Position numbers and translations under genes: made by a program | Part shown: in pieces, positions 43,443-49,926 of the stretch | Layout: the number at the start of each line of letters is the position of its first letter | Numbering within the stretch: position 1 is the first letter of the stretch | Assembly: GCA_003354135.1 (NCBI GenBank) | Contig: PIVK01000006.1 | Location: 7,743-71,742, forward strand | DNA: 64,000 nt | Source of the DNA: Rhodospirillales bacterium | GTDB lineage: Bacteria; Pseudomonadota; Alphaproteobacteria; Rhodospirillales; GLO-3 | Direction: 5' to 3' | Notes under the pieces: generated by a model | The model's database searches: none | What the model saw: the letters and a program-made list of their open reading frames with translations, nothing else | What the model was told of the DNA's origin: nothing

Positions 43443-44252
43443 TTAGTCGTCAAGGGCCTCGATCTGTTCGGGATGCGTCGCCTCGATCATCGGGCCATTG
43501 CGTTTGCGCAGCCAGCCGCGTACGCGGATGCGCCGACTCTCCCACGCCAGGGGGTCGACACCGGCGGTCGCGAAGACCTTCGCCGCCTTCGGGCCGATGG
43601 TGATCGTGAAGTCACTTCGCCATCGCGGCCCGAAGTTCAGATAGACCCGGTTCTTTACCCGGGCGGCGTCGATCACCGCGCCCTCGATGACCAGGAACGT
43701 GCCCGCTTCTCCGGCAAGTCCCCTTTCATCCGCGGCGTGGCGGACCCGATAAAAGGGATGCCCCCAGATCCCCCGTTTCGCGCTCCTGGCACTGCCTTCA
43801 AGCCGGAGCATGGGTGCGGCGAGCGCCCGGTTGTCGGGAAAGGTATAGACCCGGGCCATGCCCGACTTCAGCATCTCCCCCTGAACCCAGGTGCCTCCGT
43901 CCAGCGCCAGGTGGGCCAGCAGACGGCCGTACCGGTCCATGCGCTGCCCACCGAAACCGAGCCGAACCGCCTTTCCCAGGACCAGAGCTTCAAGGGCCGA
44001 CTTGGACTCCTTGGCCAGCGGCCATTCGACAAACCCTTTGCGGCCCAAAGGCAGTTTCGGAGCCTGCAGACCGACAAGCCGCACCTGCTTCTTGCCGAGC
44101 ACCGGCCGGTCCAGGACCACGGTATCGCCGTCCACGACCGCGCGGACGGTCGCCTCCCCCTCGAAATTCAGATCCTGCTGCCAGCCGGCCCCGTACGCAG
44201 CGAAGGGCGCGAGGAAAACCAGAACCAGAAAATGACGAAGTCCGCATGTCAT
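43443..44252 (-). CDS. thermonuclease (SNase-like) family protein, secreted
   Basis: DGDTVVL...VRLVGLQAPK...DRYGRLLAHL...GMARVY are SNase motifs. ATG 44252 gives a signal-like N-terminus; the track ORF uses GTG 44270. Confidence 0.8.
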   Translation of the reverse strand: MTCGLRHFLVLVFLAPFAAYGAGWQQDLNFEGEATVRAVVDGDTVVLDRPVLGKKQVRLVGLQAPKLPLGRKGFVEWPLAKESKSALEALVLGKAVRLGFGGQRMDRYGRLLAHLALDGGTWVQGEMLKSGMARVYTFPDNRALAAPMLRLEGSARSAKRGIWGHPFYRVRHAADERGLAGEAGTFLVIEGAVIDAARVKNRVYLNFGPRWRSDFTITIGPKAAKVFATAGVDPLAWESRRIRVRGWLRKRNGPMIEATHPEQIEALDD

Positions 44253-44338
44253 GGCCAAAAGAATGGCCACGGCCGGGCGGTTCCGTCCAGCCCCCTTTTG
44301 GCTGCGTTTTCCGGATGCGGTTCCCTATAATTGAAGCC

Positions 44339-45331
44339 ATGGACCTCACAATCGACCAATTCGACCTCTATCCCTTGGTCGAGCCCTTCCAGACCGGGCG
44401 CCTCGATCTCGACGGGCGCCACGTCATGTATTGGGAGCAATCCGGCAACCCCCAGGGGCAGCCGGTTGTTTTTGTCCACGGTGGCCCGGGCGCGGGGGCC
44501 GGTCCCAATCACCGCCGGTTCTTCGATCCCGGACATTACCGCGTCATCGTCTTCGACCAGCGCGGGGCCGGCCGATCGACCCCTTTTGCCGAGACGGAGG
44601 ACAACACGACCGCGCATTTGGTGGCCGATATGGAACACCTGCGCCGGCATTTGGGCATCGAGTGTTGGATGCTCTTCGGCGGTTCCTGGGGGGCGTCGCT
44701 GGCCCTGGCCTATGCCATCGCCCACCCGGATCGCTGTTCCGCCCTGGTCCTCAGAGGGATATTCCTGTGCCGGCAGCGCGAGGTCGACTGGTTTCTTTAC
44801 GGAATGCGCACCATCTTCCCCGAGGCATGGCAAGACTTTGCCGGTTTCCTGCCCGAGCCCGAGCGGGATGACCTGTTGGAAGCGTACTGGCGGCGCCTGA
44901 TCTCTCCCGACCCGGAAATCCATCTTCCCGCGGCCCGTGCCTGGAGCCGCTACGAGATCCGGTGTTCGACCCTTCTGTCCCCGCCGCCCGATATCCTGCG
45001 GGTCTACGAAAGCAAAAACGTCTTGGCGCTGGCTCGTTTAGAGGCCCATTACTTCCGTCATGTCATGTTCATGGAGGAAGACTACCTGCTGAAAGGGGTC
45101 GGGAAGCTCGCCGCGATTCCCGCGGCCATCGTGCAAGGCCGCTACGATATCATCTGTCCCATCGTCAACGCCGACGAACTCGTGCGGGCATGGCCGGGGG
45201 TTGATTACGTGGTCGTACCGGATGCCGGCCATTCCGTGATGGAACCGGCAATATGCCGCGCCTTGGTGGCGGCGACCAACCGGGTCAGGGAACACGCCGT
45301 CACCCCTGGTTGTTTTGTCACGAGCCCTTAA
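44339..45331 (+). CDS. pip: prolyl aminopeptidase (proline iminopeptidase)
   Basis: YWEQSGNPQGQPVVFVHGGPGAG, nucleophile elbow GGSWGASLAL, and C-terminal PDAGHS. An alternative in-frame ATG lies at 44315. Confidence 0.88.
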   Translation: MDLTIDQFDLYPLVEPFQTGRLDLDGRHVMYWEQSGNPQGQPVVFVHGGPGAGAGPNHRRFFDPGHYRVIVFDQRGAGRSTPFAETEDNTTAHLVADMEHLRRHLGIECWMLFGGSWGASLALAYAIAHPDRCSALVLRGIFLCRQREVDWFLYGMRTIFPEAWQDFAGFLPEPERDDLLEAYWRRLISPDPEIHLPAARAWSRYEIRCSTLLSPPPDILRVYESKNVLALARLEAHYFRHVMFMEEDYLLKGVGKLAAIPAAIVQGRYDIICPIVNADELVRAWPGVDYVVVPDAGHSVMEPAICRALVAATNRVREHAVTPGCFVTSP

Positions 45332-45403
45332 CGCCGGTTCCCTTGAATTTCGGGCGTTTCCACGTATGATGCGGGCCTCGGGGATGATCAAAGGGGCAGG
45401 GCC

Positions 45404-45925
45404 ATGTCAGGCCGCATGTTGACGACCTTGATGGCACTGGGTTTGGGCCTATGTGTCTCGGGTGGGGCGAAGGCCGACGATCCGGATTTCCTTTCGATCT
45501 CCGCCGGCTGGTTCGACTTCAACCGCCAGAAGGACCCCGGTGCCGAGTTCCGGATCGAGTATCGCTCCGATTACAAGGTCCCCTACGTTCAGTTCAAACC
45601 CTTCTTGGCGGCGGGCGGCGCCACCAGCGGCCACGGTTTCATCGGCGCCGGGGTGTTGTGGGATATCTATTTAGGCCGCCGCGTCGTGATGACGCCGAGT
45701 TTCGCCCCCCACTACTACATCGGTGGCGACGACGACCTGGACCTGGGCCATAAACTGGAATTCCGCTCCCAGCTGGAAGTGGCCTACAGGTTCGACGATC
45801 GGTCGCGCCTGGGACTCGCCGTCTCACACTATTCCAACGCCTCGATCGGCGACAAGAATCCCGGGACCGAGACCCTGTCGCTTTACTACTCGATGCCGCT
45901 GGACAAACTGGGAAAGTGGTTCTAG
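45404..45925 (+). CDS. acyloxyacyl hydrolase / lipid A 3-O-deacylase (PagL-like) outer-membrane protein
   Basis: Signal peptide, beta-barrel-like alternation, and the HYSNASIGDKNPGTETLSLYY motif (His-Ser catalytic region of PagL-like proteins). Confidence 0.75.
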   Translation: MSGRMLTTLMALGLGLCVSGGAKADDPDFLSISAGWFDFNRQKDPGAEFRIEYRSDYKVPYVQFKPFLAAGGATSGHGFIGAGVLWDIYLGRRVVMTPSFAPHYYIGGDDDLDLGHKLEFRSQLEVAYRFDDRSRLGLAVSHYSNASIGDKNPGTETLSLYYSMPLDKLGKWF

Positions 45926-45988: not shown

Positions 45989-46065
45989 GCGCCCGTAGCT
46001 CAGTCGGATAGAGCACCAGATTCCTAATCTGGGGGTCACAGGTTCGAGTCCTGTCGGGCGCACCA
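45989..46065 (+). tRNA. tRNA-Arg (anticodon CCU), CCA encoded
   Basis: Acceptor gcgcccg/cgggcgc, D arm gctc-agtcggata-gagc, anticodon arm ccaga-ttCCTaa-tctgg, T arm acagg-ttcgagt-cctgt, then A-CCA. Confidence 0.93.
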
Positions 46066-46159
46066 TTTTTTCTATGAAATTTAGGTCAGGCTTTAGCCGA
46101 AATCATAACAACCGATAGGTCTTCACCAAACCAACCCCTCCAACTTGGAGAAACGCGTA

Positions 46160-46888
46160 TCACAATTTAGTTAACCGGCGACACTTGAAAGTTACGATTG
46201 GCGGAACGTGCCAACATTCTTTTAGTCGATCAGAACTATTATCCGCCACTATCGGGGTAGGCTCACATAGATCAAGAATTTCGAACTTGGAACTTCGAAG
46301 GCTAGAAAAAATCGTCGAAAGAGTACGGTGGTAATTATGTGTCTCACAATCCAACCACGTGAAGACCCTTTTACTCTCTTCGAAATATCGTTTTACCAAC
46401 CAATCGTTGGAATTAATCCCATTTGATACTTCTGGATTGCTCGTTCGAACTGGATGTCTCTGAGAAAAAACAAAAACTCCCCCCTCTACCAGCCGTTCAT
46501 AAACGCCGTTAAAAAAGCTTTCAATATCCTCAACGAAATGGGCGGCAAGAGAGCTGACAATTATGTCATATGTGGGATGTTTTTCCACATCATTTAATTT
46601 TTTGCTTATTAAGCAGTTCGAAAGTTCTGGGTGGCGCCTTATCGCCTCCGTCACCATATCTGACGAAATATCAATTCCAAGGAAATCTTCTGCATCCTTA
46701 CTCAATACAATCGAAAGGTCGCCCAAACCGCACCCAATTTCCAAAACACGAAGACCTCGAAGGTCGCCAAGCAGAGCAAGAATCTGAGGTTCATCCACAC
46801 ACCGGTTCACGCTATCAGGCGCATCCCTCCGTTCCGCGAACTTTGCTATAAAGTCTTTGTCATTGAACAATCGTGTTTTGTCAGACAT
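46160..46888 (-). CDS. class I SAM-dependent methyltransferase (islet-encoded)
   Basis: ATG 46888 (MSDKTRLFNDKDF...); the track start 46909 is TTG. Motif I VLEIGCGLGDL. No DPPY/NPPY-type DNA-MTase motif seen. Confidence 0.75.
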   Translation of the reverse strand: MSDKTRLFNDKDFIAKFAERRDAPDSVNRCVDEPQILALLGDLRGLRVLEIGCGLGDLSIVLSKDAEDFLGIDISSDMVTEAIRRHPELSNCLISKKLNDVEKHPTYDIIVSSLAAHFVEDIESFFNGVYERLVEGGVFVFSQRHPVRTSNPEVSNGINSNDWLVKRYFEESKRVFTWLDCETHNYHRTLSTIFSSLRSSKFEILDLCEPTPIVADNSSDRLKECWHVPPIVTFKCRRLTKL

Positions 46889-46936
46889 CTGGATTGTCAC
46901 TTGCTGCAAACCCCTTTTCTCTTTTAAGGTAGGCGC

Positions 46937-47899
46937 ATGCCGGATACGTACATAGATTTAGCCGTTAAAGCACTTCGCTACCATAAAGCGCCCCTTAGCG
47001 CTAAAGAAATCATGAAAATAGCGGATGAAATTGGGGCTATTCCACCACACACGCATGGCAAGACCCAACACAAAACCCTTCAAGCACGATTGAGCGAGCA
47101 CATTCTTAGGGATCGTGAAAATTCTCTAGTATATCGAGTAAGTCCAGGAAGGTTTTTTCTTCGTGAATTTATGCTTGAAACATCAATAGATGACAAATTC
47201 AAGATTGAATTCCACGCCCGCAGAAGAAAAAAGGATTTAACCAATGAGAACGTATTAGTCTTGCCGGCAAAACCGCTGAAAGAGGCCGGAGTATACGGAT
47301 ACATAGACGATACAAACCAAATTATTTCTCTCCTAAAGAAGGCCAAATCAATATACAAACCCCGCAAAAATGCCGAAACCGATTTCAACTGCAAGCAAAT
47401 TATTACCTATGTTTTAGTCGCTAAAGGAAGTAAAATCCTAAGCTATCGTCGCGGGAAATTCTCAAATGCTGGCCAAGAGATATTAGGCGCAAGAAGCGTC
47501 GGGTTTGGTGGTCATGTATCCGATACAGATGCTGATTTTCTCGATCAGGAGACATTTGGGATTAGAAACAATGCGTCGCGAGAACTCCTTGAGGAATTAT
47601 GGTTAGAACGCGAAGAACAAATGAACCTACAAAAATCAAAGTCTCTAAGGCTTTTCTCATTCATAAATGTTGATGACACAGAAGAAGCAAAGAAACATAT
47701 TGCAGCGATCTTGCTCTACTATTGCACTCCCAAGTTCGAACCCAAGAAAGGGGAGCTTTCCATCAACGACCTAAATTGGCTAGACATAACTCATAGGCCA
47801 AACAATCTCGATGATTTTGAGTTATGGTCGAGAATTATCATAAATAAGTTGAGAGATCCAAAATTTAGAAAGCATTTTGGGGGGTTAAAAGCCGGTTGA
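46937..47899 (+). CDS. HARE-HTH (winged-helix) domain fused to a divergent Nudix-like hydrolase domain
   Basis: RBS AAGGTAGG. The N-terminus YIDLAVKALRYHKAPLSAKEIMKIADEIG...GKTQHKTLQARLSEHI...VYRVSPGRFFLREF matches the HARE-HTH pattern. The C-terminal half has VLVAKGSKILSYRR...GFGGHV...(insert)...RELLEELWL, a Nudix-box-like REUxEE with longer spacing. Confidence 0.65.
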   Translation: MPDTYIDLAVKALRYHKAPLSAKEIMKIADEIGAIPPHTHGKTQHKTLQARLSEHILRDRENSLVYRVSPGRFFLREFMLETSIDDKFKIEFHARRRKKDLTNENVLVLPAKPLKEAGVYGYIDDTNQIISLLKKAKSIYKPRKNAETDFNCKQIITYVLVAKGSKILSYRRGKFSNAGQEILGARSVGFGGHVSDTDADFLDQETFGIRNNASRELLEELWLEREEQMNLQKSKSLRLFSFINVDDTEEAKKHIAAILLYYCTPKFEPKKGELSINDLNWLDITHRPNNLDDFELWSRIIINKLRDPKFRKHFGGLKAG

Positions 47900-49773
47900 T
47901 GATCGAAGACATTTACACTGATTTTTCGACGACAAATGGGCGACCAATTTTTTGCCATTTTTTGAACCGAGAACTTCATGATTCTCTAGGAAACGAGTTC
48001 AATGGAGACTTATATACGCGCCACTTACAGTATCTTTCCATCACCAACACAGAACCCATGTTTTGCAACGTATCCCAGATATTTGAAGCGAGCTCAACTC
48101 ACGTCCCACTAATAAATGAAATCAAAGAATTAGCCCAAGGTGGGTTGTTTTACGCCCACTCTGAGTATTTTAGAATCAAAGAATTCCTTGAATCTCGTCA
48201 GAATTTATACAGCCATGACACTGAGAGATATCCTATATATTTCAATAGCCCCCCAAAAAACGTGCACTCCATCAAATTACGAAACTTCGGAAATGAAGGG
48301 AGCACAACCGGCTATATTGAACAAAACATAAGGGCCTGGGACCCATTAAATCAGTCTCAAACTGCTACAAAATTGATCCAGCCAAATGACAAGCTTATCC
48401 TTGCGCCCCATGCGTCCAAAATTCAAAACGTAACTTCTAAGCGAGGTGATCTTGGTTTGACAATCGCCCTTTTTCGTCAACAGAGCCCAGATGTACTCTC
48501 TGATCCGATGGTTGATGGTGGATTAAGGCGTTTACTAAGCGCATTGTATGTCTCTCACTATTGTGACGAGTTCAATGCTGTGCGCAGTTGGGGTCTTCCG
48601 TCTATTTCTTACTTCGACGATGGCTATCGACTTCCACTGCTTAACAACATTTTACTCTCCACTTTGATCAATCTAACCGGGCTGAACAGCTTTCTTTCGG
48701 CACAAGATGGGTACGGAATACGTGACAGAATAGATCAATTCTTTTCTTTCGAGAAAAAGATATTTTCGATTCACGCAAAGGATTTTTCTGATGCCCTGAA
48801 AATGGCCTTCTTTTCCTCAGATCAAAAGCACGAAATTCTTGGAGGCTTTTCCCGGGCGATTCAATCGATTCACGCGTTCTCAGATAACACCTGGTCTGAA
48901 CGTGTTCCAAAAACTTACAAAGATGCGCTTAGTGAAGCTACTTTTAGAATCCAAACGATCTCTCATAAACTTTCAGAAAGCAATGAGGGTTTCCGAGAAG
49001 CTATGGAAGTAAATAGATGCACAACACCAAAAATCATAATAGCAACCGCCACTGACCTTGAAGACAAGGTCCTTTTCCAGATTTTTGAAGAAAATGGTAT
49101 CCGAAAAGTTGGATCGGACTACTCAGGAATAAGTTCAATTAGACATTTTGGTGAGCACGGCGGAGTAACAGTATTTCACGTAAGAAGCTCCGCAGGCTCA
49201 ACCGGTTCTTCAGGTGCCCAAGAAACGATAACCGACGCACTAAACCACGTCGGCGCACATATGATCATATCGGCGGGAATCTGCTTTGGTCTGAATGAGA
49301 GCAAGCAAGAGTTAGGAGACATAGCCGTTTCAAGCAAAGTACGGCTGTACGAGCAACAACGGATTAACGAAACACGGTGGCCGTTTTCAAAACCGAACAT
49401 TAATCTTCGGGGAGACTTGATCCCCGCGAGCGCTTTATTGCTCGACCGGATGCGCGAGAAACGGCAGGGTTGGGATAGATGCTCGATCCACGAAGGAGTT
49501 TTCCTCTCCGGCGAGAAACTGGTGGACAACAAACATTTTGTTAAACAGCTTAAATATATTGAACCAGAAGCAGTTGCTGGAGAAATGGAAGGGTCTGGGG
49601 TTTCTTCGGTTGGAGTCCGGAATCGCAAGGATTGGATTGTAATAAAAGGCATATGTGATTGGGGCCACGGCAAGGAGAGGTCTTTTCAGAATGTTGCCGC
49701 AAAAAATACATTTCAGTTTGTTACTGAGGTTATTAAGTCCGGTGGCTTGAATTCCAAGTCGGTCTTAAAATAA
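47899..49773 (+). CDS. large protein: unassigned ~375-aa N-terminal region + C-terminal PNP/MTAN-type nucleosidase domain
   Basis: ATG 47899 overlaps the upstream stop (TGATG). The C-terminal ~245 aa align by eye to E. coli MTAN: KIIIATATDLEDKV / SSAGSTGSSGAQETITDAL...MIISAGICFGL / LGDIAVSS / AVAGEMEGSGVS / WIVIKGICDWGH. The catalytic Glu of xEME and Asp of I(S/C)D are conserved. Confidence 0.75.
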   Translation: MIEDIYTDFSTTNGRPIFCHFLNRELHDSLGNEFNGDLYTRHLQYLSITNTEPMFCNVSQIFEASSTHVPLINEIKELAQGGLFYAHSEYFRIKEFLESRQNLYSHDTERYPIYFNSPPKNVHSIKLRNFGNEGSTTGYIEQNIRAWDPLNQSQTATKLIQPNDKLILAPHASKIQNVTSKRGDLGLTIALFRQQSPDVLSDPMVDGGLRRLLSALYVSHYCDEFNAVRSWGLPSISYFDDGYRLPLLNNILLSTLINLTGLNSFLSAQDGYGIRDRIDQFFSFEKKIFSIHAKDFSDALKMAFFSSDQKHEILGGFSRAIQSIHAFSDNTWSERVPKTYKDALSEATFRIQTISHKLSESNEGFREAMEVNRCTTPKIIIATATDLEDKVLFQIFEENGIRKVGSDYSGISSIRHFGEHGGVTVFHVRSSAGSTGSSGAQETITDALNHVGAHMIISAGICFGLNESKQELGDIAVSSKVRLYEQQRINETRWPFSKPNINLRGDLIPASALLLDRMREKRQGWDRCSIHEGVFLSGEKLVDNKHFVKQLKYIEPEAVAGEMEGSGVSSVGVRNRKDWIVIKGICDWGHGKERSFQNVAAKNTFQFVTEVIKSGGLNSKSVLK

Positions 49774-49926
49774 GCGTAACTGCCCAAGTTGCCGGTTGAG
49801 GATTGGGTTGAGAGAACAGGTTTTGTAGGTTTGGAGCTCTGACCTGAGTTTGCGGCCTGTGGGCGACGTCTTTATATTCGCCAACAAAAACAGCGCCCTA
49901 CAGGATGTGCAGAAAACCGGACACCC

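Follow-up and report, generated by a model that had tools for sequence, protein, structure and literature searches.

A HARE-HTH/Nudix fusion protein in a mobile three-gene cassette with a possible role in bacterial defence

The gene considered here lies at positions 46937..47899 (+ strand) of a 64,000-nucleotide stretch of DNA from a Rhodospirillales bacterium (contig PIVK01000006.1); this whole stretch is referred to below as the window. The gene runs from an ATG start to a TGA stop and encodes a protein of 320 amino acids (aa), in which an N-terminal HARE-HTH winged-helix domain is joined to a Nudix domain of the COG4112 type. The Nudix protein and a methyltransferase dependent on S-adenosylmethionine (SAM) form the conserved core of an undescribed mobile cassette of three genes, the third of which is interchangeable. 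In the window the three genes of the cassette have been acquired horizontally. Judging by its conservation among relatives, the Nudix domain is probably an enzyme with a defined pocket, acting as a pyrophosphohydrolase. The chances that the cassette, with a Nudix domain predicted to be active, serves in defence of the abortive-infection type are put at about even. This operon context was absent from a preliminary description of the gene, and it forms the more interesting part of the analysis.

Domain architecture and predicted activity

An AAGG ribosome-binding site is present 7-10 nt 5' of the ATG. The open reading frame (ORF) is not a chance one, since 233 full-length homologues of the protein were found, and a search with just its Nudix domain gave 2086 cluster representatives at E<=1e-3. 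The homologues are named in databases as 'winged helix-turn-helix domain-containing protein' or, by JGI, as 'predicted NUDIX family phosphoesterase', and a search of one full-text library returned no publication mentioning both 'HARE-HTH' and 'Nudix'.

The HARE-HTH domain occupies aa 4-78 (46946..47170, +). Here Pfam PF05066 matches with E=5e-8 and 33.7 bits, against a gathering score of 25.9, over profile positions 2-71 of 71. The domain carries the GKT..T..A.L signature. In an AlphaFold2 (AF2) model of the protein, built from 118 homologues and having a mean predicted local distance difference test (pLDDT) score of 93.2, it shows winged-helix topology with three helices and a beta-hairpin (H4-16, H22-31, H44-62, E65-69, E72-75; pLDDT 90-98 in this part). 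The N-terminus had been proposed to follow the HARE-HTH pattern, and the profile match and the model bear this out. The domain is the most conserved part of the protein across the whole family, with G41, T43, T47, A50, R51, I56 and R67 invariant in both of the subfamilies described below. A scan of the protein against NCBIfam gave no match, and one against PADLOC gave just a weak match to PDC-M57B (E=0.02) over the HTH.

The Nudix-fold domain, of TM1382/COG4112 type, extends over aa ~101-306 (47237..47854, +) according to phmmer, Foldseek and phrog_8902. A phmmer search of PDB sequences matched 3E57 (TM1382, 'putative Nudix hydrolase') with E=2e-6, aligning query residues 101-260 with residues 13-161 of 3E57. 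The same structure was the top match when Foldseek was run with the AF2 model (E=1.5e-11, TMt 0.79), followed by YfcD, isopentenyl diphosphate (IPP) isomerase, NUDT15, MutT, NUDX1, RppH, Dcp2 and NrtR (3GZ8); there were 90 PDB matches at E<=1e-3, and the 50 listed all belong to the Nudix clan. The best named matches among viral models (BFVD) are phage Nudix proteins, and phrog_8902, a family of unknown function, matches residues 137-306 with E=1e-21. The Pfam NUDIX profile, PF00293, gave no match to the protein even at E<=1. Its link to this family is transitive only, through a kinase-fused relative at 0.0084 (sub-threshold) and stand-alone relatives at 3.6e-7 and 6.5e-6, which exceed the gathering score. 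Relatives that stand alone, 200-220 aa in length, align from query residue ~102. Of the two profile checks suggested in the preliminary description, that with PF05066 was thus positive and that with PF00293 negative. Its view of the C-terminal half as Nudix-like is upheld by the matches to 3E57 in both sequence and structure searches, by the PF00293 matches of relatives, and by phrog_8902 and the phage Nudix models.

The canonical Nudix box reads GX5EX7REUXEEXGU. The expanded box of the present protein lies at aa 189-223 (47501..47605, +), within the region 186-RSVGFGGHVSDTDADFLDQETFGIRNNASRELLEELWLERE-226, and is composed of GFGGHV, a 15-residue loop and the helix N212-A-S-R215-E-L-L-E219-E220-L-W222. 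The resulting pattern is G192-x12-E205-x9-R215-E-L-L-E219-E220-L-W222. It departs from the canonical spacing, the gap between G192 and E205 being 12 residues instead of 5 and that between E205 and R215 being 9 instead of 7. It also lacks the terminal Gly, which is replaced by W222 here and by W, F, D, N or E in relatives. The preliminary description, which had noted a spacing longer than x7 and the change of Gly to Trp, was exact on both points. It had also pointed to a GGHV lead-in on a strand and to REUxEE; both are present, GGHV lying on strand 190-193 of the AF2 model and N212 to E220, including R215-E216-L-L-E219-E220, on helix 209-220. Mapping of the box residues therefore places RE-x2-EE on the Nudix helix; a profile match for one of the two domains and a Nudix-related predicted fold were both found. 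Alignment with hhalign set residues 209-226 on residues 46-63 of MutT, with R215/E216/E219/E220 at R52/E53/E56/E57 and W222 at G59. Position -8 has no conserved acidic residue, and the canonical first Glu is unconserved in both subfamilies; D198 may replace it.

The best match of the protein in both sequence and structure is TM1382 of Thermotoga maritima (3E57; COG4112 'predicted phosphoesterase, MutT family'), whose function is listed as undetermined (PMC5389931). The two have in common an N-terminal extension, the GGHV strand, RE-x2-EE on a Nudix helix preceded by a lengthened loop, and the lack of a final Gly, the box of TM1382 reading GGHV...REVNEEVD. Unlike the query, TM1382 is a stand-alone protein of ~200 aa without HARE-HTH, and it keeps the canonical E-x7-RE spacing. 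Since TM1382 and the whole subfamily have both the lengthened loop and the change at the Gly position, the expanded box is a trait of the TM1382/COG4112 Nudix lineage, to which the query is assigned on these similarities. Fusions of Nudix and a P-loop kinase from the same lineage, without HARE-HTH, were also seen (P0176, P0183; 378 aa), which indicates that the Nudix-kinase pairing is independent of the DNA-binding module.

Stand-alone Nudix proteins of the lineage, with GxGGH and RE-x2-EE, are found in phages, including jumbo phages (comparison loci L175:1438-2061, L176:5908-6561 and L177:5857-6528; phrog_8902). That of L176 adjoins a class II ribonucleotide reductase (RNR) on a 314-kb viral contig. 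These phage proteins may have a part in nucleotide metabolism or in counter-defence. A further match, in 'Staphylococcus phage SA 1306 Kay' (L178, OR844993.1 123474-131938), was rejected as evidence of phage origin, as IF3 and trigger factor flank the Nudix gene; the record is flagged UNVERIFIED_ORG, and the stretch looks like bacterial chromosome, not phage.

The 233 full-length homologues split into two subfamilies, with the query in subfamily A. In the alignment of 66 members of subfamily A, the residues E104, R143, E147, K153, Q154, R171, R172, G189-G192, D198, R215, E216, E219 and E220 are invariant, as are N244, H254, E273, W281, W297 and S298, while H193 and N212 are conserved in at least 90% of members. 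In subfamily B, GGH has become S/T-x and RE-x2-EE has become x-A-x2-x-D, and nearly all of the residues invariant in subfamily A are lost. The invariance of R215, E216, E219 and E220, together with ~15 other polar residues, makes hydrolysis likelier than mere binding. The earlier suggestion that the protein binds rather than hydrolyses a nucleotide has accordingly become less likely for the query, whose catalytic residues are invariant in 66 relatives and lost in the sister subfamily; it is subfamily B, with its lost box residues, that such a description fits. The pairing of a putatively active with an inactive subfamily offers a natural experiment on an enzyme becoming a scaffold or sensor.

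Subfamily B has a genomic context of its own. A HEAT-like protein is encoded next downstream in 104 of the 112 loci with room for such a gene, and the C-terminus of this partner (104 loci) is a CHAT protease in 28, a PNP domain in one and of unknown type in 75. The subfamily is found in loci L005-L079 and L106-L167 (for example L006:6998-9615 and L013:6944-9368) and on a plasmid (L179:5998-8606); pairs occur on plasmids and prophage-like contigs as well. Together with its HEAT-like partner, subfamily B resembles a conflict system of two genes, carried on the chromosomes, plasmids and prophages of alphaproteobacteria. Two other relationships were considered and rejected. The idea that the downstream gene is a tandem paralogue of the query in most loci was traced to a single wrongly assigned ORF (L062); the partner is in fact an unrelated HEAT-like protein. 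BLASTP gave no match between the N-terminus of the PNP protein of the window, described below, and the HEAT-like N-terminus of the subfamily B partners.

The cassette in the window and in related loci

The cassette lies in a low-GC island (46066..49880), defined by its composition profile, which contains the three cassette genes only. The island is 3.8 kb long and has 38-50% GC, compared with 60-67% for the genome. It begins directly 3' of a tRNA-Arg(CCT) gene (45989..46065, +; ARAGORN), which forms its left edge, and ubiG and an aspartokinase gene lie beyond its other end. The island ends showed neither an att-type direct repeat nor a second copy of the 3' end of the tRNA gene.

The first gene of the cassette is divergent from the Nudix gene and encodes a class-I SAM-dependent methyltransferase (46160..46909, -), matched by Methyltransf_12/25/11 with E=1e-11 to 1e-13 and by PDB 3G5L with E=3e-28, the latter alignment starting from residue 9. 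Its true start is likely the ATG at 46888, giving a protein of 242 aa and leaving 46889-46936 as the intergenic DNA between the two divergent genes. GCGLG is its SAM-site motif. An orthologue is found in the same position in L001, L081, L087, L088, L090, L091, L092 and L105, with fragments in L082.

Linkage of a methyltransferase to the Nudix gene extends well beyond these orthologues. The loci compared, classed by seed searches, comprised 80 genomic, 80 metagenomic and several contig loci, 39 of them of subfamily A. A methyltransferase adjoins the Nudix gene in 30 of the 39 subfamily A loci versus 1 of 129 subfamily B loci (Fisher 4e-24, the loci not being phylogenetically independent). The methyltransferases of the cassettes are of three types, in three gene orders, which are no closer to one another than to UbiG. 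The notion that they constitute one family was rejected for this reason, and the presence of three unrelated class-I lineages implies that the pairing with Nudix has been assembled more than once.

The third gene of the window cassette (47899..49773, +) encodes a 624-aa effector candidate, consisting of a helical domain (aa 1-372) and a PNP_UDP_1 nucleosidase domain (aa 378-613) resembling methylthioadenosine (MTA)/S-adenosylhomocysteine (SAH) nucleosidase (MTAN). The start codon of this gene overlaps the stop codon of the Nudix gene (ATG and TGA), so that the two are translationally coupled. The PNP domain is matched by PF01048 (E=1e-10) and by the PADLOC model for the CBASS 'Effector PN-superfamily' (E=5e-12). 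Its scores are 43 bits with the PADLOC effector model, 47 bits with the NCBIfam MTAN model, which is far below the cut-off of that model, and 42 bits with Pfam. In a Foldseek search with an AF2 model of the 624-aa protein (pLDDT 91), MTAN structures matched at ~1e-13 and the PNP domain filled the match list. R504, M563, E564 and D587 are invariant, so that the catalytic Asp is kept. PNP domains are proven ATP-nucleosidase immune effectors, which deplete ATP and dATP in CBASS and Detocs (bioRxiv 10.1101/2023.01.24.525353). On the partner of subfamily B, which lacks the methyltransferase, PNP and CHAT take each other's place, and a mere role in SAH recycling is therefore unlikely.

The PNP fusion itself is rare, with 38 homologues in 5.8 billion clusters. 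Its helical domain matched no Pfam family in any of these 38 homologues and no PDB sequence. In L090:5920-7509 and L091:2026-3669 the helical domain (window 47899-49014) carries a different, unnamed C-terminus, suggesting a possible role for it as adaptor or sensor within the effector.

Three architectures can be distinguished among the related loci. In architecture 1, that of the window, a divergent methyltransferase gene is combined with the Nudix gene and that of the helical/PNP protein; it is shared by L001 (Methylocystis), L081, L087, L092 and L105, and is more or less complete in L082, L088-L091 and L113. Architecture 2, found in 17 loci, has a co-directional methyltransferase, the Nudix gene and a small 8xMP (PF24838) membrane protein as the third gene (for example L002:7947-8705, L003:3276-3842, L083:3362-4039 and L085:1964-2512). 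Literature and structure searches returned no relevant paper and no solved structure for the 8xMP family. In architecture 3 (L086, L112, L117, L153 and L158) a 510-aa HARE-HTH/Nudix protein carries a C-terminal adenylate-kinase-like domain, of the nucleoside monophosphate (NMP) kinase type, and is followed by a TehB/TPMT-like methyltransferase, SIR2_2 and Ham1p_like. In both the 8xMP form and the SIR2/HAM1 form the genes share one direction, and their stop and start codons overlap. An integrase and DUF3987 adjoin the cassette in L087, and relatives of the HARE-HTH/Nudix protein occur on plasmids and prophage contigs. As a separate observation, a gene for a Dam-type (D12) DNA adenine methyltransferase lies directly upstream of the kinase-fused gene in L086:4564-6001, L117:397-1221 and L123:602-1576; L086 additionally has an AAA_28 protein.

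Architecture 3 provides a link to the Kongming defence system. Its HAM1 protein has EH(A/G)GL where E. coli RdgB has DDSGL, and its closest plasmid homologues are HAM1-SIR2 pairs. The change of the catalytic Asp to His is the hallmark of defensive HAM1, or KomB, which senses deoxyinosine triphosphate (dITP) and activates the SIR2 NADase KomC; the dITP messenger arises from a base-modifying enzyme and a phage nucleotide kinase (bioRxiv 10.1101/2024.12.20.629578). KomBC modules without the KomA deaminase associate with nucleotide-modifying genes, including SAM-dependent methyltransferases and NTPases, and it is these associated genes that have been proposed to make other nucleotide signals (bioRxiv 10.1101/2024.12.20.629578). 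For its candidate types, the Kongming supplement gives no domain names in the text. By these motifs, the SIR2 and predicted catalytically dead HAM1 of architecture 3 are identified as the Kongming KomBC effector. A candidate for base modification, the methyltransferase, is encoded within architecture 3 itself, as is an NMP-kinase-like domain, which is fused to Nudix.

As to the remainder of the locus in the window, promoter and terminator scans gave background level only, and nothing resembling a repeat or an operator was prominent. At the 5' end of the methyltransferase gene, adjoining the divergent intergenic region, the hexamer TTGTCA occurs twice, 16 nt apart (window 46878-46899). This pair, which went unmarked in the consensus promoter scan, may act as a promoter element or as an operator. 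To the left of the tRNA gene, positions 43443-45925 hold a thermonuclease-like gene (-), a gene for a proline-iminopeptidase-like alpha/beta hydrolase (+) and one for a small outer-membrane-type protein (+). These were named by eye from their translations only, and are ordinary high-GC chromosomal genes.

A possible signalling mechanism and its alternatives

Bacterial immune signalling was long held to use cyclic nucleotides and ADP-ribose derivatives only, until Kongming, with dITP, added a base-modified messenger. The cassette combines a methyltransferase, a predicted nucleotide pyrophosphatase and a DNA-binding domain, has effectors in common with Kongming, and so offers a candidate for a second messenger of different chemistry that can be tested directly. 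In the defence reading, whose chances were put above at about even, the Nudix domain would act as an active pyrophosphohydrolase and, together with the methyltransferase, would make a base-modified nucleotide, probably a methylated purine, or hold it below a threshold. The methyltransferase/Nudix module would thus take the role that the KomA deaminase has for dITP in Kongming. HARE-HTH would couple this nucleotide chemistry to a nucleic-acid cue, for example invading or differently modified DNA. Either the resulting signal or direct contact with the Nudix protein would then switch on the suicide effector encoded by the variable third gene. In the window this would be the PNP nucleosidase, which would destroy adenine nucleotides and so halt the infected cell.

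It is more tentatively proposed, as a possibility that is itself doubtful, that the methyltransferase and the HARE-HTH/Nudix protein generate or gate a SAM-dependent methylated nucleotide, which would be an immune second messenger for interchangeable suicide effectors, the PNP nucleosidase in the window and 8xMP or KomBC in other loci. If this proposal is true, the cassette would represent a second class of base-modified nucleotide signalling after the dITP of Kongming, and the first to use methylation, with the inactive subfamily B as a messenger-free derivative. The TM1382/COG4112 Nudix lineage, so far uncharacterised, would likewise gain its first function, as would its phage homologues. 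If the defence reading fails, there is still a clean annotation for a widespread fusion now labelled only 'winged helix-turn-helix protein'.

A number of observations weigh against a defensive, messenger-based role. In the window there is no known defence gene beside the cassette, and neither an integrase inside the island nor an att repeat was found. The models of PADLOC v2 include none for the Nudix protein, and the cassette is not a known PADLOC v2 system. As the first Glu of the canonical E-x7-RE is not conserved, the catalytic geometry of the Nudix domain may differ. The Nudix step could supply an NMP substrate, mature the signal or degrade it. On the methyltransferase side, the lineages are not orthologous, so that a common methylated product is an assumption. 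On the effector side, the closest solved relatives of the PNP domain are housekeeping MTA/SAH nucleosidases, and 8xMP is without an obvious ligand-sensing domain.

The winged helix and Nudix domain together mirror the architecture of NrtR, whose Nudix domain (3GZ8) is among the Foldseek matches, and an alternative, which is judged unlikely, is that the protein is an NrtR-like ligand-responsive repressor. The winged helix would repress the toxic PNP and methyltransferase genes by binding an operator located between the divergent genes, which are 27-48 bp apart, while the Nudix domain would sense, and perhaps consume, a nucleotide ligand, leading to derepression without any diffusible immune signal. 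Divergent genes with a very short intergenic region are typical of autoregulated cassettes, and in subfamily B the box is dead, as in NrtR, yet the effector partner is still present. However, a pure sensor would have no need of the catalytic residues that are invariant in the subfamily of the query. The domain order is also reversed and the HTH is of another family, the co-directional, overlapping genes of the 8xMP and KomBC forms mean that there is no conserved divergent promoter, and nothing operator-like stood out at the locus. A modification-sensing trigger, considered quite unlikely, would instead have HARE-HTH read a DNA modification, such as N6-methyladenine (6mA), and activate the coupled effector by contact, with no small-molecule messenger; the methyltransferase and Nudix activities would serve for self-protection or editing of the nucleotide pool. 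Such a trigger would suit the strong conservation of HARE-HTH, which subfamily B keeps though its Nudix domain is dead and its methyltransferase lacking. Passages of PMC6591016 and PMC11037411 discuss HARE-HTH and related winged helices as 6mA readers. The Dam-type D12 methyltransferase preceding the cassette in three loci points the same way, as does the stop-start overlap of the Nudix and effector genes, which suggests a complex. The cassette methyltransferases, however, are of the small class-I, small-molecule type and have no DNA-target domain, and a contact trigger leaves unexplained both why an active Nudix should travel with a methyltransferase and how an NMP kinase and a dead, nucleotide-sensing HAM1 come to accompany them.

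The cassette might also have no conflict role at all, and be a metabolic or house-cleaning operon in which a methyltransferase is accompanied by a Nudix enzyme sanitising non-canonical or methylated nucleotides and by an MTA/SAH-type nucleosidase recycling by-products; this is thought very improbable. TPMT, NUDT15 and ITPA are enzymes of purine-analogue detoxification, which the set of TPMT-like protein, Nudix and HAM1 recalls. The SAH that the closest solved relatives of the PNP domain act upon is a product of the neighbouring methyltransferase, and stand-alone Nudix relatives adjoin IF3 and trigger factor (L178) or class II RNR (L176). A housekeeping operon is harder to reconcile with a low-GC insertion at a tRNA gene and a patchy taxonomic distribution, with cassettes beside an integrase or on plasmids and prophages, and with the rarity of the PNP fusion. 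In addition, the nucleosidase is exchanged in relatives for a membrane protein or for SIR2 and a dead HAM1, and PNP alternates with a CHAT protease in subfamily B, where there is no methyltransferase. All three alternatives are weakened by the same features, namely the invariant catalytic residues, the linkage to methyltransferases, and the replacement of the nucleosidase by membrane, SIR2/HAM1 or protease effectors.

Comparison with known systems

HARE-HTH is known from the RNA polymerase delta subunit, the N-termini of restriction enzymes and ASXL. The domain of the present protein is the same by PF05066 and by GKT..T..A.L. NrtR combines an N-terminal degenerate Nudix domain with a C-terminal winged helix, whereas the order in the query is the opposite and the RE-x2-EE residues are kept; it is the inactive subfamily B that resembles NrtR in its degenerate box. 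The partners differ too, being NAD-metabolism genes for NrtR and candidate effectors for the query.

The effector candidate can be compared with Cap17 of CBASS and DtcC of Detocs, which likewise have a PNP_UDP_1 domain at the C-terminus, containing the catalytic Asp and a Met-Glu motif, and a non-catalytic domain at the N-terminus. In the window protein the N-terminus is a ~370-aa helical domain and not a SAVED/CBASS sensor or a receiver, and its PNP domain may belong to the defensive Cap17 clade or to the MtnN clade.

Kongming consists of KomA, an adenosine deaminase, KomB, a dead HAM1, and KomC, a SIR2 protein. Neither KomA, KomB nor KomC is found in the window island; a KomBC-like pair accompanies the kinase-fused relatives only, and no deaminase was seen with these. 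The candidate base modifier of the present cassette is a methyltransferase and not a deaminase, a Nudix and a DNA-binding domain are added, the effector is a PNP nucleosidase, and the messenger is hypothetical. What the cassette family has in common with Kongming is its logic, in which a nucleotide base-modifying enzyme and a nucleotide kinase are combined with a swappable effector that depletes NAD or ATP.

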